Below are positions 4,725 through 60,429 of a stretch of DNA of 64,000 nucleotides, in pieces. Location: the IMG/VR virus record IMGVR_UViG_3300029704_000004; one strand, given 5' to 3'. The notes beneath the pieces are model-generated. The model worked only from the letters and a program-made list of their open reading frames with translations, did not search any database and was not told the origin of the DNA. The stretch is from a virus. Position 1 is the stretch's first letter, and every line of letters begins with the position of its first letter. The translations under genes and the position numbers were made by a program.

Positions 4725-7700
4725 ATGACAAAGAAGTGTAATAGATTAAGAGGTGAACGACCTAAAGCATTTTGGGGTGCTTTAGTTGGTGGTGCTATGA
4801 ATTTAATTGGTAGTGCTATTAGTTCTAAATCTCAAGCTAGAGCTATCAGAAGACAAATTGAAGCTCAGAAAGAAGCTGCTCGAACTCAATTAGAGTTAGC
4901 TAATAATAGTAATCTTGCTAGTACGTTGAATAGTTATGTAACTGCTACAAGAAGTTATAATGATGAAGATGATTATAATTTAAAGTATCGTCTTGGTGGT
5001 AATAAACGTTTAGAAAGTAATAGAATTTATATTACTGATGGAGGCAATGCTACTAAGATTGGAAATGATACATACCTTTTACGGGGGGGTTCTCACGAGC
5101 AAACCAATGAGACTGGTCAAACAGGTATTGGTATCAATGTTGGTGGTAACGAAGTTGAAGCTGAGGGAGGTGAAGTTGCTCAGAAGAAGAATGGTGCTCT
5201 AAGAATCTTTAGTGCTCAACCTATTCTTGGTAATGGTATGAGTCCTGCTCAAGCTATTCTTAGAGGTTATAATAAAGATAAAGTATTTAATGCTCAACAA
5301 GCATTTAAGAGAAGAAATGGTCTTAAAGATGATGGAGGTAAAGCAAAATGGGGTATTGGATGGCTTGACAGTTTATTTGGAAACGATAATCCTAAAAAGA
5401 AAACTGTTCATTTTTATAAATCTCAAGCTACAGGTAAAGTATTTAAAACTAGACAAGAAGCTATAGCCGAAAATAATAAATATAAAACTAATTTAGGTTA
5501 TAGAAGAACTATCAATAGAGAACGAGAATTTGAAGCTGCTAAAAACAAAAGCGGTAATGAACGAATACCTTATATTAAAGAAAAAGAAATTAAATTAAGT
5601 AAGGCAGGTAAATTAACAGGAATAAAACTTACTACTAATCAATTAGATAGTATTGCTAAATATGCAAATAAAGTAGGACTTCCTATTAAAACTGCTTTAG
5701 GATTGGTTGGACAAGAAAGTGCTTTTGGAAACTATTTTGGTTATGCAAATAATGCTAAATTTCTAAATGAATATCATAAACAAGGAGAAATGAATAGAGA
5801 TATTTTTGGTATTCCTGCATATAATATAGTAAATTACGAAAGATTACTTCCTAATAAAATACCAACATTGGTAGATGATAATGCCATAAATGATAAATAC
5901 GCAAAAAGAGGTATAAATAAATTTGGATATTCTGCTGTAATCAATGGTGATGAATTAGATAAACTTAAAGTTCAACATGAAGCTTATCCAGGTCTTGCTA
6001 AAAAACGTGCAAAATTTTGGAAAGATATTAAAGTTCCAACTTTGGAATTGGCATTTAAAGCTTATAAAGACCATCCGAATTTATATAATGCTGGTAATCC
6101 TAATCAACAAAATTTAGTTAATAACAAAGCTAATGATGTTTGGGGAAGTCCAGAAATTCAAAAATGGTATAGAACATCTCCTTATGTAAAACATCGTCTT
6201 GGTGGTCGTTGTAAACTTAGAAATGACGGTTTAACTTCTAAAGATAGAGGTTCTTCTAAACGTCTTTATCCTTCGGTATCATCTAAAGATTTTGCAGGTG
6301 GTGGTAGAAGTTATCCTATTCCAACTAAAGCTGATGCTGTTGATGCTTTAAGACTTGCTGGTCTTCATGGAAGAAGTGATGTTAGAAGTAAAGTATATAG
6401 TAAATATCCTAGTCTTCGTCCTAAAGCTAGAATTGGTGGCAGTTGGAAAGCTCCAGTTTATAATACTAATAAATATAGAGTTTCCAATCGTATGAGAAGA
6501 CAAATAGCAACTTGGGAAGGTTCTGATTTTGCAGGTCAAAATAGAAGATTCAAAGGTGATGCTATTGGTGCTAAAGAAAGAGAACTTAGACGAATAATGG
6601 GAAGAACTTATAATTATCTTAATGATAATCAAAGAGATTCTCTTAATAGTATTTACTATAATAGTCGAGTTGATACTTTCAAAAATGCTTTTGGTAAATG
6701 GTTTAGAAATTTAAATAGTGCAGTAGATAGAGGTGATGAACGTGCGTTCAATAATAGTCTTGCTGGTATTAGACAAAGTATGACTGTTGGAGAAAATAGA
6801 AAAAGTATGAGTGGTTTAGCTAAACGTAGAGCTTGGGAAAGAAATTGGTTTGGCAATCCTATTCCAATGGATAGTAATGAAACTAAAGCTATTCTTAATC
6901 AACAAGCTGAAGCTAAAATGGTTCAACCTACAGATAATACTAGAGTTGTTATTCAGCCTGAGTATATTGAAATTCCTACTCCTGTCGGTCATGGTGTTGT
7001 TCCAGTAGATAATCCAGACCCTAATTTATTGCAAGGTAATATTAAAGATAATTTAATTAATATGGGAAATAAATTTAGATTAGGACAAAGATGTGGTGGA
7101 AGTACTAGAATGCGTAAAGCCTTAGGTGGTGAAAGCCGCCCCGTAAAAGGCATGAGACGTAAACTTGCTTGGGGTGATGTAACTTATCCTTATCGTAGAA
7201 ATAATAATTTTGATTATTGGGATATTATAGACCAAGAACAAAAAATTAATGATAAAGGTGGTATAAGTCCTTGGACAACATCTAATAAATACGATGTTAA
7301 AGTTCCTTATGTAATTACTAAGAGTACTCCTACTATTCCTTATACAAGTCAAGTTAGTACTCCAACTTCTGGAGTTTCTGAAAATAAGACTATTCCTACT
7401 TATACTGGTAATAAGTCGGGTATGATAATTCGTGATGCTGATTGGTATGGTCTTGGAGCTGATTTAGTTTCTAGTATTGGAGGAAGTATTCTTGGTTTGG
7501 GTGCTTATAAAAACTTAGATTTTGATTATAATCTTCCAAACTTTGTAGAGGAAAGTCCAGTTGCTCTTAATACTACTTATCATAATGAAGCTCAAAAGTC
7601 TAATGTTGAACGTAATCGTTTAAATAGTAGAAATAGTATTCTTAGAAATACTATGAGTGGTAGTACTGCTGTTGGTCGTATGCAAGGTGTTGATACTAAC

Positions 7701-8273
7701 GCTTTATATCAACTTAATCAACTTGCTGATGAAAAAACTAATAAAGAAACTGAACTTATGAATCAGAATCTTTTGAACGAACAACAAGTTAGAGCTAGAA
7801 ACGCTGCTGCTAGAAATCAGTATTATAATACTGTTGCTAGTATTAAGAATGCTGCTATTCAAGCTAAGAATGAAGCTGAACTTGCTAAGGGACAAATTCT
7901 TAGTGGAAGTCTTCAAGGTATTGGAAATAGTTTCCAAAACTTTATTAGTCAAGGTCGTCAAAATTATGATGATACTCAAGCTATGCTTATGGGAGTTGCA
8001 GCTTCTGATTATGCTACTCCATCTAGATTACTTGAACTTGGTGTTGATGTTGGTGATGATGCTGCTCTTGCAGGTATTTATCGTTCAGCTATGAATATTC
8101 CAAATCCAGGTGCTAGACCTAAGAGAGAAGACTATTCAGATAATACTGAATATAGTTATGCTCTTACTAGATGGGAGAATCAGAACAAAGCATACCAAAG
8201 AAGAAATAGTTATGCTGATTTAATTAAAGGTAGAATGAGTAAAAAGAATCTTATTAAATACGGTATTATTTAA
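4725..8273 (+). CDS. large virion (ejected/tail-associated) protein with a lytic transglycosylase (SLT) domain
   Basis: 1182-aa ORF. GLVGQESAFGN (catalytic Glu codon 5715..5717) followed by LYNAGNP resembles the SLT E-S ... AYNAG signature. Gly-rich hydrophobic segment and coiled-coil-like Q/N-rich C-terminus. Followed by a strong terminator. Confidence 0.6.
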   Translation: MTKKCNRLRGERPKAFWGALVGGAMNLIGSAISSKSQARAIRRQIEAQKEAARTQLELANNSNLASTLNSYVTATRSYNDEDDYNLKYRLGGNKRLESNRIYITDGGNATKIGNDTYLLRGGSHEQTNETGQTGIGINVGGNEVEAEGGEVAQKKNGALRIFSAQPILGNGMSPAQAILRGYNKDKVFNAQQAFKRRNGLKDDGGKAKWGIGWLDSLFGNDNPKKKTVHFYKSQATGKVFKTRQEAIAENNKYKTNLGYRRTINREREFEAAKNKSGNERIPYIKEKEIKLSKAGKLTGIKLTTNQLDSIAKYANKVGLPIKTALGLVGQESAFGNYFGYANNAKFLNEYHKQGEMNRDIFGIPAYNIVNYERLLPNKIPTLVDDNAINDKYAKRGINKFGYSAVINGDELDKLKVQHEAYPGLAKKRAKFWKDIKVPTLELAFKAYKDHPNLYNAGNPNQQNLVNNKANDVWGSPEIQKWYRTSPYVKHRLGGRCKLRNDGLTSKDRGSSKRLYPSVSSKDFAGGGRSYPIPTKADAVDALRLAGLHGRSDVRSKVYSKYPSLRPKARIGGSWKAPVYNTNKYRVSNRMRRQIATWEGSDFAGQNRRFKGDAIGAKERELRRIMGRTYNYLNDNQRDSLNSIYYNSRVDTFKNAFGKWFRNLNSAVDRGDERAFNNSLAGIRQSMTVGENRKSMSGLAKRRAWERNWFGNPIPMDSNETKAILNQQAEAKMVQPTDNTRVVIQPEYIEIPTPVGHGVVPVDNPDPNLLQGNIKDNLINMGNKFRLGQRCGGSTRMRKALGGESRPVKGMRRKLAWGDVTYPYRRNNNFDYWDIIDQEQKINDKGGISPWTTSNKYDVKVPYVITKSTPTIPYTSQVSTPTSGVSENKTIPTYTGNKSGMIIRDADWYGLGADLVSSIGGSILGLGAYKNLDFDYNLPNFVEESPVALNTTYHNEAQKSNVERNRLNSRNSILRNTMSGSTAVGRMQGVDTNALYQLNQLADEKTNKETELMNQNLLNEQQVRARNAAARNQYYNTVASIKNAAIQAKNEAELAKGQILSGSLQGIGNSFQNFISQGRQNYDDTQAMLMGVAASDYATPSRLLELGVDVGDDAALAGIYRSAMNIPNPGARPKREDYSDNTEYSYALTRWENQNKAYQRRNSYADLIKGRMSKKNLIKYGII
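5071..5093 (+). repeat. GC-rich dispersed word, forward copy 1
   Basis: CATACCTTTTACGGGGGGGTTCT; in-frame in CDS 4725..8273, read as TYLLRGGS. Confidence 0.85.
7134..7154 (-). repeat. GC-rich dispersed word, reverse copy 2
   Basis: AGCCGCCCCGTAAAAGGCATG; in CDS 4725..8273, read as ESRPVKGM. Confidence 0.85.
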
Positions 8274-8284
8274 AATAAATAAAT

Positions 8285-13900: not shown

Positions 13901-16900
13901 TAATGATGCTCTTGATGTTCTTAATCTTACTAAAGGAAAGAATTATCGTTTAGGAGAACAAATTCAAGGTTTCCTTAGTCTTCGTCAAGATATATTTGAT
14001 AGTCAAGAAAGAGAAGAAAGTCATAATGTTAATAATCCAGATGATAGTAATAATGGTGCTGAACCAGAGAGTACAACTACTCCTCCCCCTAGCACGCAAA
14101 CGACCTCAAATCCTGCGTCACAAGCCACTCAACCTCAGCAGCCTATTAATCAATCGGCAAGCACCCCACAGTCGCCTATAGCGCAAGGAAACACGCCTAC
14201 AGGCAATTCGCAATCACAAAGTGCGCAGCCAACACTACGCAACGAAGTGGGTGAGCGGGTCACAGAATTTTTAAATAGTCATAGTTCTATAAAACCAACT
14301 AATATAAAAGTAGATAAAAATGGTAATGTTTCTAGTGGTGAACTTACTATTGATAATAATGCTAGAACGGAAGATATATTTGCTTTTATGGGTAATGCAG
14401 ATTTATTTGAAAATCCTGAACTCGCTAATATTCCTAGTGCTACTGTAGAAAGAAATCCAAGTTTTGAATATGATGATAATAGTAATCCTATTATTATTCA
14501 AAAAGGAAAAATTGACGTACAATTAGCAACTGGTCAATCAAATAGTTCAATACCTTTTACGGGGGGGTCTTCTGGTTCTAATGCTAGTACATCTACACAA
14601 GATAATACTAGTACTAATCAACAAACTACTCAGCAACAAGCTCAACCAGCTACTCAACCTCAAGTTGTAGATAGAGCTGAACTTACTGCTAATTTTATGG
14701 GAAAACTTAGAACTAGTGGTAAAGAAATTAAAGCAGGTAATTTAACTGCTGAAGAGTTTATTAAATCTCTTAAAGATGAAGGTATTGCTCTTGGAGCAAG
14801 TCAAGAAGATATTGACGGAGCTATAACCAGTGTAAAAGCTGTTATGAACAACCTTCTTGGAACTACTTTTGCTTCTAGTGTTGGTGAAGTTATGCTTGCT
14901 AGTGCAGTAGAGGAATATAAACCAAGTTTATCTTTCGGAAATGAATATAAAGATGCTGCTAATAATATGCTTAAAAATTATGCTTTTGAAGTTAAACTCA
15001 GACAACATAACGGAAAGTATTATGGTAATCTTGAAGATTTACTCCGATATATAAACGAACATAGTCCTAGTAAGAATACTGCTGATTTCATTTATAATAG
15101 TCTTAAAGAATATCTTAAAACTGAAGAAGCTAAAAAGCAATTTGTAATGCTTGATGCTGATTCAGTTGATGATGCTGAATTTATGACTAATGTTCGTAAG
15201 ACTGCTGGTGAACGTAGAGCCGAAGCTATTAAAGCTGGTACTCTTAAACGAGTTAATATTCGTGAGCTTAGTGAAGTAGTTCCTCCTGATAGAATTGATG
15301 CAAGTTTAGCAGAACTTGATAAAATTAAAGAAGGCGATAAACTTACTGTAAAGAAAGCAAACAAGCTTGCTACTAATACTGATGTTTTATTAGTTCAACA
15401 TAATGGTACTACTGTTGGTTGGATGGGTATTCCTACTTTTGATGTATCAACAGGAAGATATATTCAAGTTAACGATTGTATCAAATATACTGTAGGTAGG
15501 TCTGCTGAATATGATGGTGCTGTTAAAGATTGGATTCTTTCTATAGCTGACCCAAAAGATGAAGATAGTAGAAAACTTAACGACCTTCTTTATAAAATAG
15601 CATTTGATAAGAAATATGATGGTTCATTTGTTGAGAAGTTTAAGAATAATCCTAGAGTTCAGGAAGCTGTAAAGAATGATTTTATAGTTATCAATAAAGA
15701 TAAAGGTTTTACTTATGCTAAAGCTCTTGATGGTATGGTTAAATTATGGAGATATAATCCTAATGTATCTTCTTTTAATCCTATTCCTGAAAGTATTAAA
15801 TTGTTCTTTGATAATCTTAGAACTAGTTATCAAACTAGTTTAGCTTTGATTAATAACAATCAAGAACTTACTGTTAGTAAAATAAGTAAAGGTGAACTTC
15901 TTAGACTTGCTCCGCATGGAACTCCTGGAGAAGCATTTAGATTTGCTCAACCTGCAAGTATTGCTATTAGTAGTAAAACTGATGCTAGAATAGCTTTAGC
16001 TAGAAATCTATCTCAAATTGAAGTTAGCGGTAAGCAAACTAATGATAATCTTGGTTTTAGAATGAACCAAACATTAATTGCTATCGATAATGGAAATGGT
16101 ACTATAGATTATACTAATGCTTATCCTGTAAATTGGGGAGTTACTAACTATGAGAAAGATGGTAAACTTGTAAATATGCCACATAGTAAAGTTCTTGCTG
16201 ATTTAACTAACGCTATTGAAGGGCAAATTATTGATAGACTTACTAATCTTCAGAAAGGTGATAGTTTAGCTAATTGGAATGAGTTTAGAAGTTTTCTTGA
16301 TACTCTTCTTGATTATAACAATAATAGTACTCTATTTAAAACTAGTGGTGTTTTTCATCGTAACAATGGACTTACTTATATTAATGCTGGAAGTAAAGCT
16401 GTAGCACTTTATGCTTGTGATACTAAACGTACTGGTGCTCCTACACAACTTGTATTTATGGAACATGGTAAAAAAGTTAGTAGTTATAGCTTGTTAGATA
16501 ATGGAGCTGAAGCTGGTAAAGCTCTTGTTCAATTCCTTAGAGAAAACGCTACTGTAAACTTTGCTCACGAACTTCTTAGTAGTGATAATAATACTTCTAT
16601 TCCTTTAAAAGGTTTTGTAAGTAGAAATGCTGACGGAAAACTTGTGATTAATATACCTGAGTATAATGGTAAAAATGGTTTTAATCGTGTTGAAGAATCA
16701 TATAATGATTTTATGATTAAGAATGATTTACTTAGAGTAGATTTAGCTCAAGTTGATGGAAGTAACTATTCAAGATTTTCATCTAATATGAAAGCTAATA
16801 GCGTACTTGAATTTACTGTAGGTGATGAGGTGAAACAAGAAGAAGAAAAGCCACTAGAACCCCCCCGTAAAGAGAATGTATCCACCAATACCACTGACCG

Positions 16901-18014: not shown

Positions 18015-21000
18015 ATGGCTAATAATTGTAGTTTAAAATTTAATGAAACTAAGGTTTACACCAACCTTAAAGCTGAAGTTGGAAACGATGATGTTTTATT
18101 TAACAGCTTAATGAGTGCAGTAATTGATGGTTCTAGACCATCTGGTTTTAACAAGGAATTTGAAACCTATTATGCTAATAATTATGGTTCTATTCCTAAT
18201 ACAAATGATGAAAGTAAAGAAGTTGCTACTGCTATTCAAAATTTTTATAAGAATAGAAATTTTAATGTAAATGAGCATACAACTGATTCTGCTTTCATTT
18301 CTGATGTTAAGTCTAAAGGTTATACTAGTACTGCTGCTAAAACTTGTGGTATTAGAACTACTGGTAATTTGATGTTAGCATTCTATCATAACGATTTAAT
18401 TAAAGGTCGTCTTGAAGAACATGCTGAAGATAGAAAAGATAATCTCGCAAATAGAGTTATAAATCGTATGTTGGGAGCTGTAGCAACAAATATTCTTGAA
18501 GCTAGAAAAGTAGAAGCTACAAAAGAAGAAATTGCTAAAGTTCGTAAACAACTTATGAATACTAAGAGTAATGATTTTGTTAAGCTTGAGGATGAAGTTT
18601 CTAAAACTACTCCTCAACTTAGAAATCAATTTGCTACTCTTAAAGATATGCTTTCTGATAAAGTTAAATATTTTACTCAAGTTATTCAAACTGATGATAG
18701 ACTTGGCGAAATTCGTTTTAAGAAAGATGATGATTTAAGTCAGCAAGAAGCAGATTGGAGTGAAAGTTTCGATATAGAAGATGATGATGATTTAAATCTT
18801 AACAATGCTGCTGATAATGCAAGTAACAACGAAAAAGATACTACTACTGCTCGTTGGGAAGATAATGGAACTAAATCTGACTTTATGAAAGATTTTAGTT
18901 TTGCTGTTCGTAGTTATCTTTCAACTATTCCTAAACTTAGTAGTACAGAAGTAAGTGCTGACGGTAAATATCAATATGATAAAAGTAATCCTCTTGGAAT
19001 GGTAGATTATATGGATTTTAAAGTCGTAAACTCTGCAATTAGAGGAGATATTGAAACTACTAATATTGATGCTTTTTTAAAGAAACTTGAAGATATTGCA
19101 AAATCTAATAAAGAATATGCTGGTCTTGCTTATTTAGCTAATGACCTTAAAAAGAAACCAGATTTTGCTTATAAATTATTTCAAGTTTATAGAAGAAGAA
19201 CTATAAGAAAACAGCAAGTTCGTATTGATGATAATTCTGTTTCTCCTACTAGAAGTAATAATCGTGCAGATAAACTTGAAACTTTAAGAATTAATTATCT
19301 TAATGATATTAAGTCAACTGCTCTTAATATCATGATTGAAGATACTAATGATATTCTTGGAGCAATTAAAACTAAAATAGATGATTATAAGACACTTCAA
19401 AAAACTAAAGGATTTGATTTAAATAAACAAGCATTAAGTGCTGATATTATCAATGCTATTGCTAGTCGTTTAAAGCAATATTATCCTTCTCTTGATAAAG
19501 CTGCTATTGAAAGATTCGCTAGACTTAATGGAAAAGTTGACGGTAAAACTCCAAATATTGCTAATAATCTTACTCAACTTTATGGTTATCTTGAGAATAC
19601 TGCAAAGTATGCTAACGAAACTCTTAATAATAAGCGAAATCTTGATAATAGATTTAAAGAAGCTAACAAGATTAAAGATAAGAAAGCTAAGAAAGAAGCT
19701 CTAGATAGTGTTCGTGAAGCTTATAAACAAGGCTATCTTTCTACTAATACAAAAGCTTATGCTCTTGAATTAGCTAAATCTTTAGCTCCATATTCTGTAG
19801 TTAATATTGATTCTAATTCTACTAATGCTCTTGGTAATCAGTCTGCTGACCAAATTAATGACAGTATGATTACTAATTTCCTTAATGCAGTTAAAGCAAC
19901 TTTAACTGAACAGCAAAAAGATGGAAGCAAAGTTTCTACTGAACTTATTAATTATGGAAAGTATAAGTTCCAAGGAGTACAATACAATCTTAGTGGTATT
20001 CTTATGGAACATCGTGATGAGAATGGTGCTGTAATTAATTATGGTCTTTTCTACAAAGATAAAGACGGTAATATTCAAATCACTAATTATGCTAGAGATA
20101 TGGTTAATATCTCTTTGTTCGATGGTGCAGGAAATCCTAATACTAAAGATAATGTTCTTTATTCAGGTATGTCTAAAGGAGATTATGTATATACAGGATT
20201 TGCTCAATACTTTAATACAGAGCAAAATCCTAAGATGCTTATGGGTGATTACTTTATGCGTATTCCTTCTGATGCTCCAAAGAACTTTGTAGTTCATGCT
20301 CCTAGATATAAAGTTGATGGCTTATTCTCTAAGATGCACGCTATTAAAAATGCTAAAGGTGAAGTTATAGCTAAAGAAGTTAGTGTTGATGATATTAACG
20401 AAAATCATCCAATAGTACAACAGTTTAGAAATATATTCAAACAGGAACTGTTGGATATGGTAAACTTTATCAACATTGTATTTGAAGTTAAAGAAAATAC
20501 AGAAACTCTTGAAGATGGTACAGTTGTTGACCAAAGAGGAAGAATTGTATTTAATAATGACAATACTCCAATGTTTAAAAAAGGTTGGGGATTAGATGCT
20601 GAATCTGCTCGTAGAGTATTTGCTAATTATCATATTGGTAAAGGACATAAACATTTTATTGAAAAGAAAGGTGATGGTTGGGCATTTAATGGACTTCTTT
20701 TTAAAGATGATAGATTTGTTCTTACAGATTATAAAACTGGTACAACTACAAAGTATGGTGACGATTTATTAAAATACTTGTTTCCTTCTCTTTACGGGGG
20801 GGCTAGAGATGGCTTTATTCCTTTCACTACTAACGCTAATGGTGAAGTAGAACTTAACCTTACAGCAGACCAAGAAGCTATGATTACTAGAATGGTTAAA
20901 GGTTTTGTAACTGACTATTCTAATAATGCTATTACTCGTATGAGCGAATATAAAGACCTTGACATTAATAATCTTATTAATGAAAAGAATAGTATTGATT

Positions 21001-24000: not shown

Positions 24001-27000
24001 CAGTATATAAAACTCTTGCTGATATTGGTAGTAATTATGATACTGCTGTAGGTTTTATTATGCAACCTGCTATTACAAAAATTGTAAATGCTTATAATGC
24101 TAATAAATCTATTTATTCAGATAAACATAATAAACCAATAGAAGAAGCTATTAGGTCATTAGGCAAAGAGATTCTTAATACTTATCATATTAATACTGAT
24201 AAAATGAATCTTGGTGAAATAGTTGCTAGAGTTAATGGATTACTTGGTACTAAGTATAGTTTAGATAAACATAATGATATTATTTTATCGCCTGATGAGT
24301 TAGCAAAGAGATTGCTTAATGATAAAAACCGCCCCGTAAAAGTAAGTATATATCAACATGATTGGGGTGTTCTTTTTGCTTATAATGATTTAGCTAAACT
24401 TTCTGATAAAATTGGTTCTACTGCAAGGGTTTGTAATCCTGATAGATTTGGTGCTAAACAAAGTATTTTCGCTACTCGTAAAGTATTTAATGATATTGCA
24501 GATTTAATTGAAGATGAAAATCCAGCTTTAGTTGTTGGAACTTCTTCTATTGTTAATAGTATCTATGCAGGTTATGACCCTACTAAAGGTTTAAGAAGCT
24601 ATATTACTAGTAATGCTAAAAGTGCATATCCTAGTCTTAATGCTTTCTTAAAATATGCTAGTGCTCCTTCTATTCTTGTAAATAGAATGTTGTTTGATAC
24701 AGAACAAGATAATTTTAGAATAGCTAATAGAGCTATTGAAGTTATAAACGGTAGTAATAATGTTACTGAGAAAGATTATAAAGGTTTTACTCAGTATATT
24801 CTTAATGCTGCTTATAAACAAACAGATGCTGTTGTAAACAACTATACTTATGATGTAGAGAAGAAACAAACTATAGTAAATAAAGAATTTGATGAAACGG
24901 ATGAAGCTCTCAGAATTATGGGTTATGGTTGTACTCCTGATTTTACTTTTAATGTTAAAGATGTAACTAATCCTACACAAGAAGAAGTAAATGCTTGGAG
25001 TAAACTTAGTCCTGCTCAAAAAATTAGTTGGCTTAAATCTAATAGTGTTGATGCTGGTATATTCAATTATATAAATACTAATTTATTTAATGAATATGAA
25101 ATGAATAGAGATGGTCAAAGTCGTCAAACTATTCGTTTTAACGAAGATGCCGTTGATAATGAAACTGCTTATAATCTTTTTGATACTGCATTTAGTTCAG
25201 ATAATCCATTAGTTAAACTTGCTGCTATGGATATGGTTAAGTATGCTTTTGTCGCAGAAGGTTTTAAAATAGGTAGAGGTGCTATTAATAAATGTATTAA
25301 AAATACTGCTCTTCGTGATGAAAACACTTTTGTTCAATTTAATGGTGCTAGAACTAGTATTATTGCTCAAATTAAAGCTCAAGTAGATAATGCAGTTTCT
25401 AGAACTGATTTAGTTGAACAATATCTTAGAAGTGACCCAGGAGTTAGTAATGTTCCTCATAAATTTATGAATAAAAAATATAGTTCTATGTTCGAAACTG
25501 TAACTAGAGGAATGTACGAATTTAGTTTGGACGATAAAGATAATGCTATCGAATTTGGATTTGCTAGAGAAAGTAATGCAGAGTTCGTTCCAATACAATT
25601 TAATAATTATATTTATATTACTAAAAAAGAAGGTAACGAAAGCGTTACTAGACTATATAAAATTGTTTCTCCTGACCTTGGTTCTGGTATAGGTTTTGCT
25701 TATCCATTAAATGGTTTGGAAGCTGGTGAAGATAGAGAAGTTAGTATTAATAATGCTAATAATAGTGTTCCTCTTCCAAGTTATTATGAAGCAGTTATTG
25801 ATAACTTGATGAACAGTGAAGTTGCTGATTATACATTAGATGAATTAAATGAATTGTATAAGAAGCATGTTGCTACAACAAAAGTCAATAAAGTCAAAGC
25901 TGTTACACATTTTGATATAATGTCAGATGCTAATAATGATAATGGTGGAGCTAAAGATGCTATTAATAAGATTATTAAAACTTTCAACAATTATGAAGGT
26001 AATAGAATCTTTATTCAAAATATGTATCTTTATGGTAAAACTAAATATGATTCATTTACTCCTCCTATTCATGTTGAAGGTGAAACTATTTCTAATGGTG
26101 GTGAACCTATTAGTATTAATGGAAACTTCTTATTTAGACGTGCTACTAAAGTAAGTATTGAAAGTCATAATATTCGTACAGGAGAACATATTGAGGAAAA
26201 ACCTCAACTTGTTGAAATAGTTAGGGAAACTCCTATGGCTAGTTCTCGTGAAGAGGTAACTCTTGGTTCTGCAAGTTCTAAACTTGAACAAAGTCTTAGA
26301 ACTACAACTGATTCTTTTGAAAAGAATATAGTAAAAGAACTTAATCGTAGAAGTGGTCTTGGAGATATAGAAGCTGGAAAACTTATGCGTCAACTTCGTG
26401 GAGAAGGATTTGAACAAAGTACTAAAGGCTATAAAGAGTTTAAAGATAGCGTATTCTATAGTGGTTATGCTTATCTTAAACATAAAGTTAATAGTACTCT
26501 TGGAAAGTTTAGTCAATTCTACAGAGATGAAAATGGTAATTACTTTGCTATCAATAGTCCTGAAGTAATCAATGTTATTAAGAATAATCCTGCTTTACAA
26601 AGACAGTTCCTTGAAACACTTGCTGATGCTAATGCTATTGTTGATAAATTTGGAATTATTAATCAGATTAAAGCTGATGAAATTGAGAATCCTACTTTGA
26701 AATTCTACATTGATGAAATGCAGAAGATGATTAAGGAACTCAGTAATAGTTCTATTATTGATGATGCAGAAGTTAAGTTTGGACTTGATTATCTTCAGAA
26801 ACTTAGTAATGACCCTAATATTCAAAATGGTCTTATTAGTATATACGATGGTTTCCATTCTAGTGGTTGGCTTGATGCTTGGTTTGGTGATTTACAAGAA
26901 CAAGGTAACAGTCTTGTTCAAGTAGTTACTAGAAAAGTAATGGCTGATATTCGTGCTAAAGAAAGTCAAGCAAAAGATTTTGCTGTAGCTTTTGGAAAAC

Positions 27001-42743: not shown

Positions 42744-43222
42744 GAGCGTCTAGCAATAAGTTTAAATATTACAACTCTTTTTGGTTTACCAAGTCTTCCG
42801 TGCGCATATTGAGCCATAGCTCCAATATTATCAGTTTCATAAGTTTGATAACATTTTGTTTTTGTCTTACAAGTATGAGTATCATAATCATAGTGTAAAG
42901 GAATATGAACCCTATCCCTATAAGGTATTAAAGAATCTATATTTTCATAGTCCTCAGTACCTTTATGAAAGTCAACTTCACCATAAGCAAAAACATTATC
43001 AGAACTCAAATTAAAAGATAAATCACCTCTATGTATAATAAAAGCTTTGCCATCATCAAGCAAAGCTTCTTCTTTTTCTGTAATTGGAGACATAAGAATA
43101 CGAACTTGTTCAGTTGATCTTCCTTCTTTATTAGTCGTATTAGTATGGTAAATCACAGTCTGATAATCTTTTGAAATAGGCATCGGAATTACCTTTAGTT
43201 TTTCTGTATCGTAACTCGACAT
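42740..43222 (-). CDS. hypothetical protein (start uncertain)
   Basis: 160-aa ORF whose first 83 nt overlap the 3' end of the primase gene. An internal Met (43183) still overlaps. Confidence 0.4.
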   Translation of the reverse strand: MSSYDTEKLKVIPMPISKDYQTVIYHTNTTNKEGRSTEQVRILMSPITEKEEALLDDGKAFIIHRGDLSFNLSSDNVFAYGEVDFHKGTEDYENIDSLIPYRDRVHIPLHYDYDTHTCKTKTKCYQTYETDNIGAMAQYAHGRLGKPKRVVIFKLIARRS

Positions 43223-44363
43223 ATCTAAGAGTATCTTTTATAAAATTATCTATTTCATCGTTACTATATTTATAATGCAAATCTGCAAAATCCTTACATT
43301 CATAATTGTCAAGACCAAACTCACCACGAGTAATGAACAAATAAGGAATATTATAAGTACTTAAAAGATAATCAGCACCATCACGACCAGTTCTATCAAA
43401 ATCTAATAAACTAACAATTAGTCCATCATCAGCTAAACGATTCTTTAACCAATCATATTCGTTAGCTTTTAATCTATAATTTTCACTAGGAAGATTAACT
43501 ACACCTATTGTTAAAGCCTTTCTATCCCCCCCGTAAAAGGTATGATTAACTAAATGATTACCTAGACTTAATCTATCTTTACTTGATTTAGTAATTATAA
43601 TATAATCATAATTATCTAATTCAAGATTAGGAAGACCTTCAAGTACATTACAATTAGTTATAAATTTCCTTTCTTTTGTTCTATCTCTAAGTGGGAAATA
43701 AAGTTTTATAAGATATATTCCTTGTCTATTTCTACCCAACATATAAGCATAACATGGGTCTTTAGTAGTATATCCATATCTAGGAGTAGGATTACTACTT
43801 CTATCTATATAATACTGTTCAACAGGAATAACAAAATGAGTATTAAGATAAGCAAGATTTACACCAAGTTTATTCCAATAAGCTTTATCTCTACTATTCC
43901 AACTACGTGGAACAATTTCAATAATAGCTTTTCTGGATTTACTTTTAATAAGAGCATTTCTAATAGATTCATCTATCTCATAATGATTAACTCGATTATC
44001 TATATCATCACTAAACACACTATAAATATGTTTAAGAATAAAATAGAAATCTTGTTTATTATCAGTACTAATAGGTCTTTCATAAACAATACTAAGAACG
44101 TAAGCTACTACATCATACACATCACCAAAGAAGCAGCCATTAAAATCTCGAACTTTAAGTCTTCCTTTCATATTGTATGCAATACCCATACTACTATCAG
44201 TATCATCATCTCTAAATACAGACTTAATAAGATGATTATGTTTAACACAATCATCTACAACATTGATAGGAATATCTAGATATTTTGCAACAATATCTTC
44301 TTGACTTATTCGAGACTCTATAAAAGCCTTTGTAAGTTTAGTAGTATTAATTGTACGTTTCAT
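43140..44363 (-). CDS. TOPRIM-type DNA primase (DnaG/T7-like)
   Basis: LLDFDRTGRDGADYL resembles the TOPRIM DxD...G motif. It is preceded by IIITKSSKDRLSL where the EGxxD element would sit. Genomic context is next to SSB-like and ligase genes. Confidence 0.45.
   Translation of the reverse strand: MKRTINTTKLTKAFIESRISQEDIVAKYLDIPINVVDDCVKHNHLIKSVFRDDDTDSSMGIAYNMKGRLKVRDFNGCFFGDVYDVVAYVLSIVYERPISTDNKQDFYFILKHIYSVFSDDIDNRVNHYEIDESIRNALIKSKSRKAIIEIVPRSWNSRDKAYWNKLGVNLAYLNTHFVIPVEQYYIDRSSNPTPRYGYTTKDPCYAYMLGRNRQGIYLIKLYFPLRDRTKERKFITNCNVLEGLPNLELDNYDYIIITKSSKDRLSLGNHLVNHTFYGGDRKALTIGVVNLPSENYRLKANEYDWLKNRLADDGLIVSLLDFDRTGRDGADYLLSTYNIPYLFITRGEFGLDNYECKDFADLHYKYSNDEIDNFIKDTLRYVELRYRKTKGNSDAYFKRLSDCDLPY
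43521..43547 (-). repeat. GC-rich dispersed word, reverse copy 12
   Basis: TCTATCCCCCCCGTAAAAGGTATGATT; in the sense of the primase CDS it is read as HTFYGGDRK. Confidence 0.85.
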
Positions 44364-47409: not shown

Positions 47410-48822
47410 TCAATCTACAATACAATAATCATAATTATTATCACTTTTAACTTCAATTTCAGTTTTATTAAGAATTAGATGATTTGCGCCATTAACACGC
47501 TCATCTAGTTTTTTCTCCTCTAAAGAGCCTTTATAATATAAGGTGTATAATTGTACCTCCTTTGCGAATTGAACCTTTGAGAGCCTATATAAGTAGGTCT
47601 CCATGGTATCACACAACGGCGACGTAATTACAACAACGTCTACATTTACGGCTAAATCCTTATCGGGAGAAGCATTTGTAGACAAAACGTGAATAGCACC
47701 TTTGTTCATCAACTTTTGAGCTAAATTTTTCTGAGATTTTACACCAAGCATTTTTGGTTTTCCCTTATTAACTCCACTCTTAATTAGAACTTCATTTCCA
47801 TTATCATCAATAGCAGGAATATTTTCTACTTTATCGTGATAATTATAACAAGTATTATAATGAGTATTATCATTAATATATTTAGTTACTTCATTTGCAA
47901 AGTCACCATGTTTATTAATAATAAGAATATTCTTATCTGCATTGTCTTCAACAATCTTTAAAATATAACTAAGTTTCTCATCAGAAGAAGCAAGAGCAAG
48001 ACTTCTACTTCTAATAATTTCGTATATTCCACTAGCACGTTCTTTAAGGGCATTTGGAGAATAAAGTTCGTCTATTTCAATATTAAATTGAATAGTCATA
48101 TCAAGATTCTCATTCCAACCATTTTGACGAGCTATGTTATAACATACAGCCATACTAGAACTATTAGTATTACTATTACCTAGACGAGCCATCTTAATTG
48201 TTTCAAAGTCACCAAAGATAGCTATAGCAGTAGATATTTCTTTATTATAATAGTCAAGTTTCTTTTTAAGATTACTATCTTCATCTATAATCAAAGGAAC
48301 TAATACTTCTTTTACGGGGCGGCTAGAACGGATTTCATCTACACTAGCTTGATTATAATAACCAACTCTAGGAATTAGATTATTAATTTGTTCTAACTTA
48401 CCAGTAAGTAGAGTTGATGATAATACCAACTTAAACTTTGCTTTGTCTAGCAGACCTACATAACAATAAAGACATTCTTTAGGATTATAAATAACCACTA
48501 AAGTAGGATTTAGATGACTAAATATATCTGTAGCTTCACTAACAGTTAAAATTTTAATCAATCCTCTAGTAATAAAATTACTATAAACATTAGAATGAAC
48601 AGGTTCGCTCTTATGTAATAGATAATCTTTAACTTTGTCTTTATCTACAAAGTCTGCAACTACAATATCAGTCTCTATTGTAGGACTTTTATTATACATT
48701 GCAGGAAGTATCATCAATAAAGGTCTAAGAACATCTAAAGGAGCAGGAATTATAAAAGTTCCAATTCCTTTATTCATTCTCCATTGATAAACACTTTTTT
48801 CATGCAATTCTTCTTCTGTCAT
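47410..48822 (-). CDS. SF2 (SNF2-like) helicase-related protein without a canonical Walker A
   Basis: The C-terminal half has HVLSTNASPDKDLAVNVDVVVITSP, which is SNF2 motif V-like. IIDEDS may be motif II. I could find no GxGKT. Confidence 0.35.
   Translation of the reverse strand: MTEEELHEKSVYQWRMNKGIGTFIIPAPLDVLRPLLMILPAMYNKSPTIETDIVVADFVDKDKVKDYLLHKSEPVHSNVYSNFITRGLIKILTVSEATDIFSHLNPTLVVIYNPKECLYCYVGLLDKAKFKLVLSSTLLTGKLEQINNLIPRVGYYNQASVDEIRSSRPVKEVLVPLIIDEDSNLKKKLDYYNKEISTAIAIFGDFETIKMARLGNSNTNSSSMAVCYNIARQNGWNENLDMTIQFNIEIDELYSPNALKERASGIYEIIRSRSLALASSDEKLSYILKIVEDNADKNILIINKHGDFANEVTKYINDNTHYNTCYNYHDKVENIPAIDDNGNEVLIKSGVNKGKPKMLGVKSQKNLAQKLMNKGAIHVLSTNASPDKDLAVNVDVVVITSPLCDTMETYLYRLSKVQFAKEVQLYTLYYKGSLEEKKLDERVNGANHLILNKTEIEVKSDNNYDYCIVD
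48303..48329 (+). repeat. GC-rich dispersed word, forward copy 13
   Basis: ATACTTCTTTTACGGGGCGGCTAGAAC; antisense within CDS 47410..48822, read as SSRPVKEV. Confidence 0.85.
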
Positions 48823-52183: not shown

Positions 52184-52742
52184 TTAATATATTAACTATT
52201 TCCATTCCATTATAATTATTATCTTTATTAGCACTAATCCATTTAATTAGACGATTACAAAATTCTTTGTATTTACTATCATCTATGAATTTAATAAAAG
52301 GAGAGTAATTTGTACTATAAACAAAAGGAGCAACATGATATAGTTTATCTTTACCTTTAGTAATATCAAAACCAAAATCAGTAGCAGCTCTACCGAGAAC
52401 CATTATCTTTTTAATATTATTTATTCTTATATCAGCAAATGTATGTAGCATACATCTACGAACTATACTTTCGTTTATAGGACATTTATCATCAAGCTTA
52501 CAACGAATAAGTGGAACAATAAAGGGGACTAGTTGCTCTAGCCCCCCCGTAAAAGGTGTAATAACCTCATTTATTATCTCAACATACTTACTAAATGTCA
52601 TTCCTCTATTCTTATAAGCATTGTAATCAACATTTGGTACAACAATAATCATACCAGACATTGGATTACCAACACCACTAAGACATTTACACTTAGTATT
52701 AAACATACCTAAAGGACAACCTTCACATACTTTAGGAATCAT
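52173..52742 (-). CDS. uracil-DNA glycosylase superfamily (family 4-like) protein with divergent active-site motif
   Basis: CEGCPL ... GVGNPMSGMIIVVPNVD parallels family 4 UDG (CxxCxL ... GxGNPxaxlmiVGEAPG), but GEAPG is replaced by VPNVD. Overlaps the polymerase start by 11 nt. Confidence 0.45.
   Translation of the reverse strand: MIPKVCEGCPLGMFNTKCKCLSGVGNPMSGMIIVVPNVDYNAYKNRGMTFSKYVEIINEVITPFTGGLEQLVPFIVPLIRCKLDDKCPINESIVRRCMLHTFADIRINNIKKIMVLGRAATDFGFDITKGKDKLYHVAPFVYSTNYSPFIKFIDDSKYKEFCNRLIKWISANKDNNYNGMEIVNILNDT
52536..52560 (-). repeat. GC-rich dispersed word, reverse copy 14
   Basis: CTCTAGCCCCCCCGTAAAAGGTGTA; in the sense of the UDG-like CDS it is read as TPFTGGLE. Confidence 0.85.
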
Positions 52743-53210: not shown

Positions 53211-53233
53211 CATACCTTTTACGGGGCGGCTTT
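53211..53233 (+). repeat. GC-rich dispersed word, forward copy 15 (intergenic)
   Basis: CATACCTTTTACGGGGCGGCTTT; followed by the perfect palindrome ATGATTAATCAT and a partner CATAAAG. Confidence 0.9.
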
Positions 53234-53299
53234 ATGATTAATCATGCCACACCCATAAAGGGCTTAAATCACAAATAAATACGCATTATGCGAATTTCG

Positions 53300-56307: not shown

Positions 56308-56337
56308 TCTAGCCTCCCCGTAGAGAAGTTAGCATAC
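56308..56337 (-). repeat. GC-rich dispersed word, reverse copy 16 (variant)
   Basis: TCTAGCCTCCCCGTAGAGAAGTTAGCATAC; encodes the last residues (LTSLRGG-stop) of CDS 56309..56650. Confidence 0.7.
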
Positions 56338-60065: not shown

Positions 60066-60111
60066 AATTCTTTAATTTAAAATGTTTATAATGTTAATTA
60101 ATACGAATAAT

Positions 60112-60429
60112 TTATTTATATACTTTACCACTAGTTAAACTTTCATTTATTTCTCTACTATAGAAATTATCTCCATCTATATTAGATAAATCAATATGTT
60201 TACTAAATGCTAAAGAATCTATTGAATCTTTATATTTCATACCTTTTACGGGGCGGCTAGAACTATTATCTGGTTCTACCATATTAATATTATGATTATT
60301 ATAATTAATATTATTTTCATCATATATTAATATTCCATTAAGATAAATAATATAACTAAATATACTTAATAATAAAATAATAATAAGTATCAGCAATAGT
60401 TTATTTTCTGTTTTCTTTTCCATAATCAA
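60112..60429 (-). CDS. membrane-anchored protein
   Basis: N-terminal transmembrane helix LLLILIIILLLSIFSYIIYL. Carries motif copy 17, read as SSSRPVKGM. Confidence 0.5.
   Translation of the reverse strand: MIMEKKTENKLLLILIIILLLSIFSYIIYLNGILIYDENNINYNNHNINMVEPDNSSSRPVKGMKYKDSIDSLAFSKHIDLSNIDGDNFYSREINESLTSGKVYK
60238..60263 (+). repeat. GC-rich dispersed word, forward copy 17
   Basis: CATACCTTTTACGGGGCGGCTAGAAC; antisense within CDS 60112..60429. Confidence 0.9.

Follow-up and report, generated by a model that had tools for sequence, protein, structure and literature searches.

Why would a gut phage genome of 30% GC carry the same GC-rich word over and over, on both strands and within genes as well as between them? 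The question arises from a 64,000-nucleotide stretch of virus DNA (IMG/VR record IMGVR_UViG_3300029704_000004), referred to here as the window, which is 97–98% identical to the crAss-like phage cr8_1 of the Intestiviridae. The original prediction, made from the window, listed 17 copies, and all 17 were found in the places given for them (Table 1). Each is a GC-rich island, and together they yield the consensus (a)CATaCCTTTTACGGGGsGGCTAGA.

Table 1. Copies of the word in the window and the gene of their candidate reader. Strand, position of the T of TACGGGG, context, peptide read across the copy, PWM score and orthologous position in cr8_1 are given.
Feature	Position	Strand	T of TACGGGG	Context	Peptide	PWM	cr8_1
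Copy	5071..5094	+	5080	1182-aa ORF 4725-8273, sense	LLRGG	37.7	29632
Copy	7131..7154	-	7145	ORF 4725-8273, antisense	SRPVKG	36.6	27567
Copy	14549..14572	+	14558	2338-aa ORF 10926-17942, sense	PFTGG	33.0	20151
Copy	16855..16878	-	16869	ORF 10926-17942, antisense	PPRK	32.9	17840
Copy	20784..20807	+	20793	4469-aa ORF 18015-31424 (virion RNAP-type giant), sense	LYGG	35.3	13916
Copy	24324..24347	-	24338	ORF 18015-31424, antisense	RPVK	23.5	10512
Copy	31437..31460	-	31451	intergenic, 13 nt past giant ORF stop, before tRNA-Gln		42.1	3399
Copy	34616..34639	+	34625	intergenic, left arm of convergent inverted pair		38.8	119
Copy	34685..34708	-	34699	intergenic, right arm of inverted pair, G-run G9		30.8	46
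Copy	39304..39327	-	39318	ORF 39042-39692, sense	IPSTGRVE	37.4	88037
Copy	40650..40673	+	40659	intergenic, 11 nt past stop of ORF 40685-41041, antisense to gene arm		41.2	86695
Copy	43521..43544	-	43535	DnaG-family primase gene 43140-44363, sense	TFYGG		
Copy	48304..48327	+	48313	SNF2-type helicase gene 47410-48822, antisense	SRPVKE		
Copy	52537..52560	-	52551	UDG-like gene 52173-52742, sense; 6-aa insertion vs other genera	TPFTGG		
Copy	53211..53234	+	53220	intergenic, between ORFs 52788-53180 and 53300-53617		41.5	74613
Copy, degenerate (CTCTACGGGGAGG)	56308..56331	-	56322	3' end of ORF 56309-56650		22.3	71511
Copy	60238..60261	+	60247	ORF 60112-60423, antisense	SSRPVKG	43.0	67513
DnaG-family primase gene	43140..44363	-		depositors' annotation of homologues; putative reader			

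With up to one mismatch allowed, TTTTACGGGG is matched 16 times, as against 0.96 ± 0.93 expected and a maximum of 4 in 100 dinucleotide shuffles, and the hexamer ACGGGG is seen 19 times (1.2 ± 1.2 expected). The 17 copies score 22–43 with a PWM that gives a background of at most 17 (20 shuffles), and a PWM scan of the window produced no strong copy beyond them. Weak resemblance was scored at two further positions, 63140 and 63166. The length first put at about 20–25 nt was measured as about 24 conserved nucleotides around a hard core of only 14–15 nt, CYTTTTACGGGGSGG. The word is asymmetric and linear, leading from a pyrimidine tract through A(C/T)GGGG into a purine-rich tail.

As had been claimed, 12 copies lie within ORFs, none of which is broken, and five are intergenic. 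The frames and peptides of the forward (LLRGG, PFTGG, LYGG) and reverse (SRPVK, PPRK) copies are likewise as first described, and where the TAG of GGCTAGA would fall in frame, the copy is GGGTTCTC. Intergenic DNA is enriched for sites (5 of 17 in 9.8% of the window, P = 0.02), and sites are also present inside ORFs of 3.5–13 kb, stretches that offer no intergenic DNA. The word is placed in intergenic space where this is available and in tolerant protein loops elsewhere. The primase site agrees with the suggestion that conservation acts on the nucleic acid: depending on the phage, the word at this position is translated in one of two frames, as TFYGG or ILYGG in cr8_1 and the prototype crAssphage (p-crAssphage) and, one frame over, as PLRGN or PLQGS in crAss002 and Rudgehvirus. 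This site is orthologous in all Intestiviridae examined, and it lies in a loop that the primases of other crAss families do not have. Whatever the identity band, the core has diverged about half as much as its flanks, a figure biased towards conservation since the loci were partly found by exact motif match. From these alignments, the conserved entity is the DNA word and not the peptide.

It had further been proposed that intergenic copies pair with inverted copies. Only one pair in the window (34625/34699) does so, and it folds into a strong hairpin (-24.8 kcal/mol, z = -6.5); the remaining intergenic copies stand alone and have no structure. Taken singly, copies show no excess of folding over shuffles (z from -1.5 to +1.4) and no secondary structure, and they have no terminal inverted repeats. 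Position 46 of cr8_1, the counterpart of the right arm, is the point where the GenBank contig was opened.

The repetition is real, and it extends further than first reported. The whole cr8_1 genome contains 28 sites, 14 per strand, and p-crAssphage contains 31 copies of TCCATCCTCYACGGGGRGT, which make up 31 of its 32 ACGGGG hexamers. A density of about 3 sites per 10 kb was found in 42 IMG/VR contigs, and the word is also present in relatives with a primase identity of 77, 73, 67 and 43%. There are 12 sites in 39 kb of crAss002, 8 in 19 kb of cr110_1, and 6 in 19 kb of Rudgehvirus, where the core is ACAGGGG; every Intestiviridae lineage examined has its own variant of the word. The copy at 5071..5094 has orthologues in relatives with 65–75% flank identity, and the place of the degenerate copy at 56308..56331 holds a full-strength copy in several relatives. 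Rudgehvirus has a copy at the same place and strand as 40650..40673, and the helicase copy at 48304..48327 is matched in place and strand by p-crAssphage (11770), crAss002 (12682), cr110_1 (4307) and Rudgehvirus (4091). Subfamilies with proteins about 45% identical have several sites in orthologous places, and these sites are still matched to the lineage consensus. At five orthologous sites of one lineage (L123), 22 of 25 diagnostic positions have the lineage's own state and none has that of cr8. At the level of sequence comparison, all copies of one genome change in concert between lineages. Partial samples (27–35 kb) of the Steigviridae, which have DnaB plus DnaG, and of the Suoliviridae contain no such word, and no description of it was found in the literature. 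Together, these comparisons establish an old, family-wide and strand-specific set of cis-acting DNA signals, with about 28–31 per Intestiviridae genome.

Could the word have been borrowed from the host, as a Bacteroides Chi-like signal, a dispersed repeat, or a CRISPR repeat serving as an RNA anti-CRISPR? The core is G-rich, as in known Chi sequences, and with a circularly permuted genome (predicted for crAss002), sites in both orientations along its whole length could help to ward off end-degrading nucleases. However, a 17-mer searched against one genome each of 185,579 species gave 57 single, taxonomically scattered matches; no genome held several copies, the Bacteroidales were not enriched and nothing was spaced like an array. 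Host genomes do not have the word as a repeat, and the search largely refutes the host-signal reading as a whole. At 24 nt the word is also far longer than Chi (5–8 nt), its variants differ among phages of closely related hosts, and these phages carry a Gam-like nuclease inhibitor. Mimicry of the host is very improbable.

The near alternation of orientation first seen in the window holds at 14 of 16 junctions (P = 0.004, label permutation) and recurs in cr8_1 (22 of 28, P = 0.005) and p-crAssphage (22 of 31, P = 0.019). Taken together, there is one copy per ~3 kb, and copies on the same strand are ~5–7 kb apart. Per-strand spacing is even in two subfamilies, with CVs of 0.34 and 0.39 in cr8_1 (P = 3.5e-5 and 2.9e-4) and of 0.43 and 0.31 in p-crAssphage (P = 0.0015 and <1e-5). 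The minimum gap in cr8_1 is 3.35 kb on the same strand as against 35 bp between strands, and opposite-strand copies come as close as 27–35 bp in cr8_1 and p-crAssphage. The four strand sets are more regular than a 2-kb exclusion model (P = 0.005, 0.018, 0.036 and 0.001); when the excluded distance is taken as the minimum gap observed within each set, clear significance is seen in one of the four only. Exclusion of close direct repeats accounts for part of the regularity. Within the replication module of five genomes, the strand order + (UDG or PolB), - (SNF2), + (primase), - (ligase or just after) is kept while the exact position of a site shifts between neighboring genes. Spacing that is even, strand-symmetric and indifferent to gene direction suggests that the word serves a process travelling along each strand of the DNA (replication or recombination, for example) rather than gene expression.

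This bears on the suggestion that the phage RNA polymerase starts transcription at the word. Recognition would fall to an AT/pyrimidine-rich part with a G-start behind it, sense copies would give internal transcripts, and antisense copies would give primer or regulatory RNAs. The word does resemble T7-type promoters in shape, size (~23 nt), GGG start and concerted, genome-specific variants. Virions of the family contain a giant RNAP with a preference for single-stranded templates and with undefined promoters, and 18 of 31 p-crAssphage copies are co-oriented with genes, including 8 of 10 in the 60–96 kb structural region. The suggestion is nonetheless weakened, and unlikely, as half of the copies (exactly half in cr8_1) oppose the only genes present and the published study of a crAss-like virion RNAP reported no shared promoter motif. 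Antisense copies are conserved at orthologous places, and many copies are found well inside giant ORFs. In phage phi14:2, the virion RNAP makes early transcripts that share no common motif, and transcription of the middle and late genes falls to the host polymerase. The Steigviridae and Suoliviridae have a virion RNAP but lack the word in the partial samples, and an intergenic block at cr8 68745 lies upstream of a separate host-type TAnnTTTG promoter.

The idea of a selfish insertion element was half right. In genes, the word lies in short stretches of inserted sequence that keep the frame and are absent from other lineages (UDG, 6 aa; PolB, 18 aa; ligase, 3 aa; the primase loop). Between genes, a clean indel of the whole block (~21–24 nt) was seen at one copy. 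There is no sign of present-day mobility. A domesticated or tolerated repeat without function, likened to Rickettsia palindromic elements and yeast mitochondrial GC clusters, would have spread by old block insertion and gene conversion, with close direct repeats purged by RecT-mediated deletion. The phage encodes a RecT-type annealing protein, the exclusion noted above would follow in part, the copies are GC-rich islands, and seven p-crAssphage copies carry (NAGCG)n tails, pentamer repeats that recall GC clusters. Against this, no presence/absence polymorphism exists among dozens of relatives at 85–99% identity, where sites are lost only via point changes or one small deletion, and useless 24-nt blocks would be expected to vanish quickly from a compact phage genome. 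Orthologous sites persist between the distant subfamilies and are still lineage-matched, the strand order survives site turnover, and each of the four strand sets is more regular than 2-kb exclusion predicts. With no inverted termini, hairpin, evident target duplication or transposase, a functionless repeat is as doubtful as the polymerase signal. New sites would instead arise rarely through short block insertions and then be retained by selection.

A site for a phage protein, the remaining proposal, is the reading favored by the evidence, in its general form only: the word would be a functional cis-signal with a phage factor as its reader, at a probability of roughly 0.75. We infer a reader encoded by the phage, specific for the sequence and evolving together with the word. 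Gene conversion between copies could by itself yield concerted evolution.

One form that this could take is a nickase or binding protein that recognizes the 24-bp duplex word on one strand, leaving specific single-strand interruptions comparable to the localized nicks of T5, phiKMV-like phages and Pseudomonas phage tf, or docking a virion, packaging or ejection protein. The nick sites of phiKMV are said to have a consensus of ~20 nt, and those of tf are reportedly on both strands. A long, asymmetric, strand-specific word in equal numbers per strand, indifferent to gene direction, not a host signal and varying by lineage in keeping with a co-evolving protein, fits such a scheme. However, opposite-strand sites 27–35 bp apart would become staggered double-strand breaks in an AT-rich genome, and even per-strand spacing that is kept through turnover is unpredicted by known nick biology. 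Nicks go unmentioned in the crAss002 and C. communis publications (PhageTerm, Nanopore data), no nickase was identified, and the cr8_1 HNH gene is missing from the window while the sites are kept. Nicking or docking is improbable, if less so than the polymerase signal or the functionless repeat.

A second form of the phage-read signal, and the likeliest of the specific mechanisms, is that the sites would act in initiation or loading on single-stranded DNA. The annotated replisome includes a DnaG-type primase, SF1 and SNF2 helicases, PolB, SSB and RecT; no DnaB-type helicase is annotated in the Intestiviridae, whereas the Steigviridae have one. The primase was assigned from the depositors' DnaG family annotation and a Toprim-like E...DxD pattern in the alignment, and it has no match in a Pfam or PDB sequence search. 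In a replisome without a DnaB-type helicase, this primase may use the word, with a chain starting at the A of ACGGGG and running in the direction of the word. Forks of either direction would meet a priming site every few kilobases, and tight back-to-back pairs would be bidirectional start points. In p-crAssphage, others have predicted a replication origin in the region immediately upstream of repL, and a tight divergent pair (95750-/95870+) is located there. DnaG-type primases normally need just a trinucleotide. Known primase-specific single-strand initiation signals (G4-type, RSF1010 ssiA/B) are structured, ~40–100 nt long and located at origins, while the crAss words are unstructured and genome-wide. 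In addition, a fixed origin should cause lagging-strand signals to switch strand by replichore, and no such switch is seen. The statement as a whole, of cis-signals that are primase initiation or loading sites, has somewhat less than an even chance, and priming of DNA synthesis in particular is put forward tentatively, as the less probable of the two. In its general form, the finding is firmer: the word is very probably neither a mobile element nor a motif of proteins but an undescribed signal for the phage's own DNA machinery, family-wide in the Intestiviridae examined.

The heptamer TACGGGG occurs 17 times in the window and each occurrence lies within a longer word, (a)CATaCCTTTTACGGGGsGGCTAGA. 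All 17 copies of the original prediction were found in place. When TTTTACGGGG was searched with at most one mismatch, 16 matches were obtained as compared to 0.96 ± 0.93 in dinucleotide-preserving shuffles, and the hexamer ACGGGG was observed 19 times where 1.2 were expected. A PWM made from the copies scored them at 22–43, while shuffled sequence reached a maximum of 17, and the distribution of scores was bimodal. The excess over shuffles and the bimodal PWM scores rule out a chance or compositional artefact. A PWM scan of the window identified no additional strong copy, just two weak look-alikes (PWM = 11.5 and 12.7) located 26 nt apart in a non-coding region where two gene arms diverge.

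Twelve copies are found within ORFs and five are intergenic. As had been claimed, no ORF is interrupted. Sense copies contribute the peptides LLRGG, PFTGG or LYGG, and antisense copies contribute SRPVK or PPRK, making five different readings of frame and orientation within the window. Where GGCTAGA would bring a TAG codon in frame, the 3' part is replaced by GGGTTCTC; thus, the copies are adapted to their coding context. The sites favour intergenic DNA: 5 of the 17 copies are in the 9.8% of the window that is non-coding (P = 0.02). In-ORF copies are also present in ORFs of 3.5–13 kb, which offer no intergenic DNA. The nearly alternating orientation noticed originally is real, with a change of strand at 14 of 16 junctions (P = 0.004).

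The window is 97–98% identical to the crAss-like phage cr8_1 (NC_055877; Crassvirales, Intestiviridae, Obtuvirinae, Fohxhuevirus), where each copy has a counterpart. The complete cr8_1 genome (92.6 kb) contains 28 sites, 14 per strand, of which 14 are sense and 14 antisense relative to genes. A scan of IMG/VR with a 17-mer of the word returned 106 stretches from approximately 42 contigs, nearly all of them cr8_1 relatives (65–99% identity) with about 3 sites per 10 kb throughout. Further loci were obtained by means of the primase protein, and relatives with a primase identity of 77, 73, 67 and 43% presented the word at the same places in lineage-specific forms (CTTCTACGGGGGGGCTAGA, TTCTTCTACGGGGGAGCTAGA, ATCCCTCTACGGGGGAGATAGA). 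The prototype crAssphage (p-crAssphage; Carjivirus communis, 97 kb) has 31 copies of TTCCATCCTC(T/C)ACGGGG(G/A)GT, with 13 and 18 on the two strands, and 31 of its 32 ACGGGG hexamers are copies of the word. There are 12 copies of CTCCTTTA(T/C)GGGGGAA in 39 kb of crAss002, 8 copies of TTCCTCTACGGGGGGTCTC in 19 kb of cr110_1, and 6 copies of CCTTTACAGGGGAGTTTACA in 19 kb of Rudgehvirus jaberico. The element is present in all three Intestiviridae subfamilies sampled.

No comparable over-represented word was identified in samples of one Steigviridae genome (35 kb) and one Suoliviridae genome (27 kb). A partial sample of a Crevaviridae genome, cr127_1, contained a different, dispersed GC-rich repeat of approximately 38 nt (cgaatttcggaacaCCTCTCGCCCTTGTGGCCattata), one copy of which is inside the UDG gene. 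This repeat may be an analogous system in a sister family. The cr8_1 contig in GenBank has its opening point within the G-run of one word copy, with a terminal overlap of 55 bp; in relatives the length of this run ranges between G7 and G9. The homopolymer of the word probably causes assembly breaks. The coordinates of the features accompanying the word are collected in the table.

Features found in and around the word in the window and in related phages
Feature	Sequence	Coordinates	Strand
Weak look-alike, CTCCTTGACGGGGGAG	window	63140	+
Weak look-alike, ATCTTAACGGCGGGGG	window	63166	+
Two-copy giant ORF	window	4725-8273	
Two-copy giant ORF	window	10926-17942	
Two-copy giant ORF	window	18015-31424	
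tRNA-Gln, anticodon TTG	window	31620-31691	+
Copy at which the cr8_1 contig was opened	window	34685-34708	
Terminal overlap, 55 bp	cr8_1 (L001; L002)	1-55; end	
Small ORF and HNH endonuclease gene beside ligase	cr8_1	85628-86299	
Place where both are missing	window	41045-41132	
Insertion splitting PolB, 1.09 kb	window	49884-50973	
GIY-YIG endonuclease ORF	window	49916-50680	-
Split PolB ORF	window	50972-52183	
Split PolB ORF	window	48819-49886	
GIY endonuclease gene splitting SNF2-type helicase gene	Rudgehvirus jaberico (L188)	4894-5529	
Tailed copy	p-crAssphage (BK010471)	6027	+
Tailed copy	p-crAssphage (BK010471)	28082	-
Tailed copy	p-crAssphage (BK010471)	28178	+
Tailed copy	p-crAssphage (BK010471)	44958	-
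Tailed copy	p-crAssphage (BK010471)	58732	-
Tailed copy	p-crAssphage (BK010471)	93672	-
Tailed copy	p-crAssphage (BK010471)	95870	+
38-nt repeat	cr127_1 (L128)	1762	+
38-nt repeat	cr127_1 (L128)	11371	-
38-nt repeat	cr127_1 (L128)	11905	+
38-nt repeat	cr127_1 (L128)	19692	+
38-nt repeat	cr127_1 (L128)	28691	+
38-nt repeat	cr127_1 (L128)	28886	-

In relatives with flanks merely 65–75% identical, the copies map exactly onto cr8_1 sites. Five genomes (cr8_1, p-crAssphage, crAss002, cr110_1 and Rudgehvirus) have both the primase site and the SNF2-type helicase site, each without a change of strand between genomes. A site immediately behind the ligase gene is common to cr8_1 and Rudgehvirus, and its minus-strand counterpart is inside the ligase gene in p-crAssphage and cr110_1. 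A tblastx comparison that placed p-crAssphage sites on cr8_1 gave a noisy result, establishing orthology for the primase, gp75/gp68 and gp78/gp65 sites only, with the helicase site added by its position in the gene.

The primase site is the decisive case: cr8_1 and p-crAssphage read the word as ..TFYGG.. and ..ILYGG.. (TAC GGG GGG), while crAss002 (..PLRGN.., TTA CGG GGG) and Rudgehvirus (..PLQGS.., TTA CAG GGG) read it one frame over. Since one DNA word at the same place in the primase is read in two frames, it is the word that is kept and not the peptide. Together with the five readings in the window, this supports the earlier proposal that conservation acts at the level of nucleic acid. A protein motif is ruled out by the differing frames and orientations and by the frame switch at this orthologous site. 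Whatever the level of divergence, the core had approximately half the substitution rate of the flanks (0.015 vs 0.034, 0.051 vs 0.098, and 0.093 vs 0.218), a comparison biased towards conservation in that part of the loci were found by an exact match to the word.

Each lineage has a consensus of its own, which a copy shares with the rest of its genome and not with its orthologue. In L123, a related phage sequence, five orthologous sites offered 25 diagnostic positions, of which 22 were in the L123 state and none in the state of the cr8_1 lineage. Variant positions are -1, +7 and +8. Copies that match their own lineage imply either a co-evolving reader or gene conversion among the copies. The same concerted pattern is known from the promoters and polymerases of the T7 group.

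The spacing of the sites is even when each strand is considered separately. Gaps on the same strand had CVs of 0.34 and 0.39 in cr8_1 (P = 3.5e-5 and 2.9e-4) and of 0.43 and 0.31 in p-crAssphage (P = 0.0015 and <1e-5). The smallest same-strand gap was 3.35 kb in cr8_1 and 2.08 kb in p-crAssphage, and sites on opposite strands approach each other to 27–35 bp. Strands alternate at 22 of 28 junctions in cr8_1 (P = 0.005) and 22 of 31 in p-crAssphage (P = 0.019). Under a model with a 2-kb same-strand exclusion, each of the four strand sets stayed significantly regular (P = 0.005, 0.018, 0.036, 0.001); with exclusion at the minimum gap of each set, just the p-crAssphage minus strand was clearly significant. 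Repulsion of direct copies thus accounts for part of the regularity but probably not all of it.

Where a site is missing from one gene in a lineage, a site on the same strand is present in a neighbouring gene, as seen with UDG and PolB or with the ligase and the spacer that follows it. As a result, the + - + - order of the replication module is identical in five genomes, which looks like selection on the arrangement of the sites. In ORFs that hold two copies, among them gp44, gp45, gp47, gp50 and gp63 of p-crAssphage, the sense copy almost always precedes the antisense copy in the mRNA (3 of 3 in cr8_1, 5 of 6 adjacent pairs in p-crAssphage), and the two could pair in RNA over 0.2–3.5 kb.

When compared with relatives, in-ORF copies sit in short in-frame insertions absent from other lineages. 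In the UDG-like protein of cr8_1 the copy is within a 6-residue insertion that other lineages lack; in PolB of p-crAssphage it is within an 18-residue lineage-specific insertion; and in the ligase of p-crAssphage and cr110_1 it is within a 3-residue insertion. The primase copy is within a loop missing from the primases of Crevaviridae, Steigviridae and Suoliviridae. One intergenic copy, located after a stop codon and before a host-type promoter, is a clean block of approximately 21–24 nt that three distant contigs have and cr8_1 lacks. These short insertions and the clean block show that copies are gained as blocks. Seven p-crAssphage copies, two of them inside ORFs, are extended on their 3' side from +10/+11 onwards by tandem NAGCG pentamers or a small GC hairpin, and all seven tandem NAGCG repeats of that genome are in such tails.

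The idea of a selfish insertion element, put forward in the original prediction, agrees with this in-frame gain of blocks but not with current mobility. No presence/absence polymorphism was found among dozens of relatives at 85–99% identity, where changes at the sites were core point substitutions and one 8-nt deletion only; block indels were found only between distant lineages. The word is asymmetric and no inverted termini were identified. The secondary structure of single copies was no better than that of shuffles (z = -1.5 to +1.4), and the sole copies that fold are those in tight inverted pairs (z = -6.5). An active mobile element was rejected on the lack of polymorphism among close relatives, of inverted termini and of a hairpin. 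While a functionless but homogenised selfish repeat would accommodate the insertions in UDG, PolB, ligase and the primase loop, the same asymmetry, missing hairpin and absence of polymorphism in close relatives make it improbable.

Rickettsia palindromic elements and the GC clusters and ori-rep elements of yeast mitochondria resemble the word as short GC-rich blocks in an AT-rich genome that are found in both orientations, in frame in unrelated proteins and also in spacers. In yeast ori-rep elements, GC clusters are joined to a promoter from which replication is primed. In contrast to the word, which is asymmetric, fixed at orthologous positions, homogeneous within a genome and regularly spaced, those elements are palindromic or hairpin-forming, polymorphic among strains and decay independently. 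REP/BIME elements and the sfx repeats of the R64 shufflon are also short asymmetric repeats of alternating orientation, and sfx repeats occur in coding sequence as well. REPs differ from the word as extragenic palindromes mobilised by RAYT transposases, and shufflons differ in needing a dedicated recombinase that makes inversions. No recombinase gene is annotated and no inversions were found between the relatives compared; with relatives colinear across the sites, a shufflon-like system was rejected. Recombination breakpoints at the sites were rejected as well, as block boundaries between the window and cr8_1 did not convincingly coincide with sites.

A search of the 17-mer against 185,579 bacterial and archaeal species genomes returned 57 single, taxonomically scattered matches, where a rough estimate with uniform base composition expects approximately 140 by chance, and no genome had multiple copies. 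A host repeat, a Chi site or a CRISPR-repeat mimic was rejected on these scattered single matches, and they make mimicry of any host signal very improbable. In an Rfam search of the window, one tRNA alone reached the gathering score and there was no match for the word. Stop-codon reassignment through the TAG in GGCTAGA was rejected since this sole tRNA is a normal tRNA-Gln(TTG), not a suppressor, and no ORF needs recoding. The tRNA gene is located just after a giant ORF and the motif copy at 31451.

The word is a linear, strand-specific element at the level of DNA. It is confined to the phage lineage, its copies are spread evenly over both strands whatever the direction of the genes, and selection or homogenisation holds them at conserved places. 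With a probability of roughly three in four, we consider it to be a functional cis-signal that is read by a phage factor. The reader would be encoded by the phage itself. The HNH endonuclease of cr8_1 was rejected for this role since its gene is missing from the window, as is the small ORF next to it, and all sites are kept. Since the signal ignores gene direction and treats the strands alike, replication or recombination appears to fit better than gene expression.

An initiation signal for RNA polymerase would have its closest parallel in the 23-bp class II/III promoters of the T7 group (T7, T3, SP6, K11). Like the word, these are asymmetric, near-identical and approximately 23–24 nt in length, number tens per genome, consist of an AT/pyrimidine-rich part followed by a G-run and may run into coding sequence. 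Variants are lineage-specific, with all copies changing together with the reader. T7 promoters, however, are all in the direction of genes and upstream of them, while half of the word copies run against genes (14 of 28 in cr8_1) and many are in the middle of ORFs, 12 of the 17 window copies being inside an ORF. Even spacing per strand is not a property of promoters, and no T7-like single-subunit RNA polymerase is annotated. This explanation is quite unlikely.

Nick or docking sites are an unlikely explanation too. The nicks of T5, phiKMV-like phages and Pseudomonas phage tf resemble the word in being sequence-defined, strand-specific and scattered, with recognition by a phage enzyme that is putative for the word. 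The nick sites of phage tf are on both strands. Words on opposite strands 27–35 bp apart would be hazardous if nicked. We know of no report of regular spacing or in-ORF conservation for the T5, phiKMV-like or tf sites.

Annotations of Intestiviridae include a DnaG-type primase, SF1 and SNF2 helicases, PolB, SSBs and RecT, and no DnaB-type helicase is annotated. In Steigviridae, whose partial sample was without such a word, both DnaB and DnaG are annotated. Pfam returned no match for the primase or the SNF2 helicase, nor did a profile search of the primase against PDB sequences. In the absence of DnaB, DnaG is known to prime only at special single-strand initiation (ssi) signals, and phage primases typically begin primers with pppAC, as established from phage G4, RSF1010, T7 and T4. 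A DnaG without an annotated DnaB, the requirement for ssi signals and the pppAC start favour, by analogy, start or loading signals for DNA synthesis, although a priming mechanism specifically is put forward only tentatively.

The favoured functional analogy is with the G4 complementary-strand origin, ssiA/ssiB of RSF1010 and primosome assembly sites. These are strand-specific, let primase start without the replicative helicase, as is proposed for the word, and at an origin may be paired, one on each strand in opposite orientations. As expected for ssi signals, the word is present on both strands (14/14 in cr8_1, 13/18 in p-crAssphage). Known ssi signals, however, are folded, 40–100 nt in length and limited to one or two per replicon, while the word is unstructured, 24 nt in length and spread genome-wide at intervals of approximately 6–7 kb per strand, ORFs included. 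According to the proposed mechanism, the A of ACGGGG would be the starting point of the chain, which would extend in the direction of the word, and back-to-back pairs would be bidirectional start points. One such pair in p-crAssphage is in the region upstream of repL, where others have predicted an origin.

It is possible, if doubtful, that approximately 30 fixed, strand-alternating, sequence-specific entry points drive DNA metabolism in Intestiviridae, including the prototype crAssphage, and are hard-wired even into essential genes. A dedicated word-and-reader pair, co-evolving as promoters and polymerases do, would then replace general priming or loading. Candidates for the reader may include the degenerate DnaG-type primase, the RNAi-polymerase-like virion RNA polymerase acting as a primase, or another protein. 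Besides the N-terminal domain of the primase, the RepL-like winged-helix proteins, DUF932 and two IHF-like proteins are further candidates.

The replication genes are also targets of homing endonucleases. In the window, the family-B DNA polymerase gene is split at its DxxSxYPS motif by an insertion with a GIY-YIG endonuclease gene (Pfam E = 4e-9) that is absent from cr8_1. Group I intron models did not match the insertion, which may be either an intron or a free-standing homing endonuclease. Along with the split SNF2-type helicase gene of the cultured phage Rudgehvirus jaberico, this demonstrates that homing endonucleases repeatedly invade Intestiviridae replication genes.

All mechanisms considered plausible are variations on types of signal already known. 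To our knowledge, the combination of an even, strand-alternating grid through essential genes, orthologous frame changes and concerted copies has no counterpart elsewhere. We know of no phage or cell with genome-wide "punctuation" of this sort, which an entry-point grid, if true, would represent. A full-text literature search found no description of the word or of crAss motifs, repeats or promoters of this kind, although a prior description is possible. The element is unmentioned in the phi14:2 RNA polymerase preprint, the crAss002 paper, the 2023 Crassvirales review and the C. communis phage-plasmid preprint.

As the word stays at the same place while the frame changes, it is a clear case of a nucleic-acid signal that overrides protein coding. 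Its lineage variants provide compact genus-level markers, its G-runs offer an account of assembly breaks, and any recoding or engineering of Intestiviridae phages must reckon with the sites. In the human gut, few viruses are as abundant as the crAss-like phages, whose mode of DNA replication was explicitly called unknown in a 2023 review. The grid of approximately 30 sites in each Intestiviridae genome examined is a concrete handle on this mode: it shows where to seek starts, nicks and bound proteins, oligonucleotides of the word may serve as baits for the reader, and crAss002, Rudgehvirus and C. communis are cultured systems suited to such tests.
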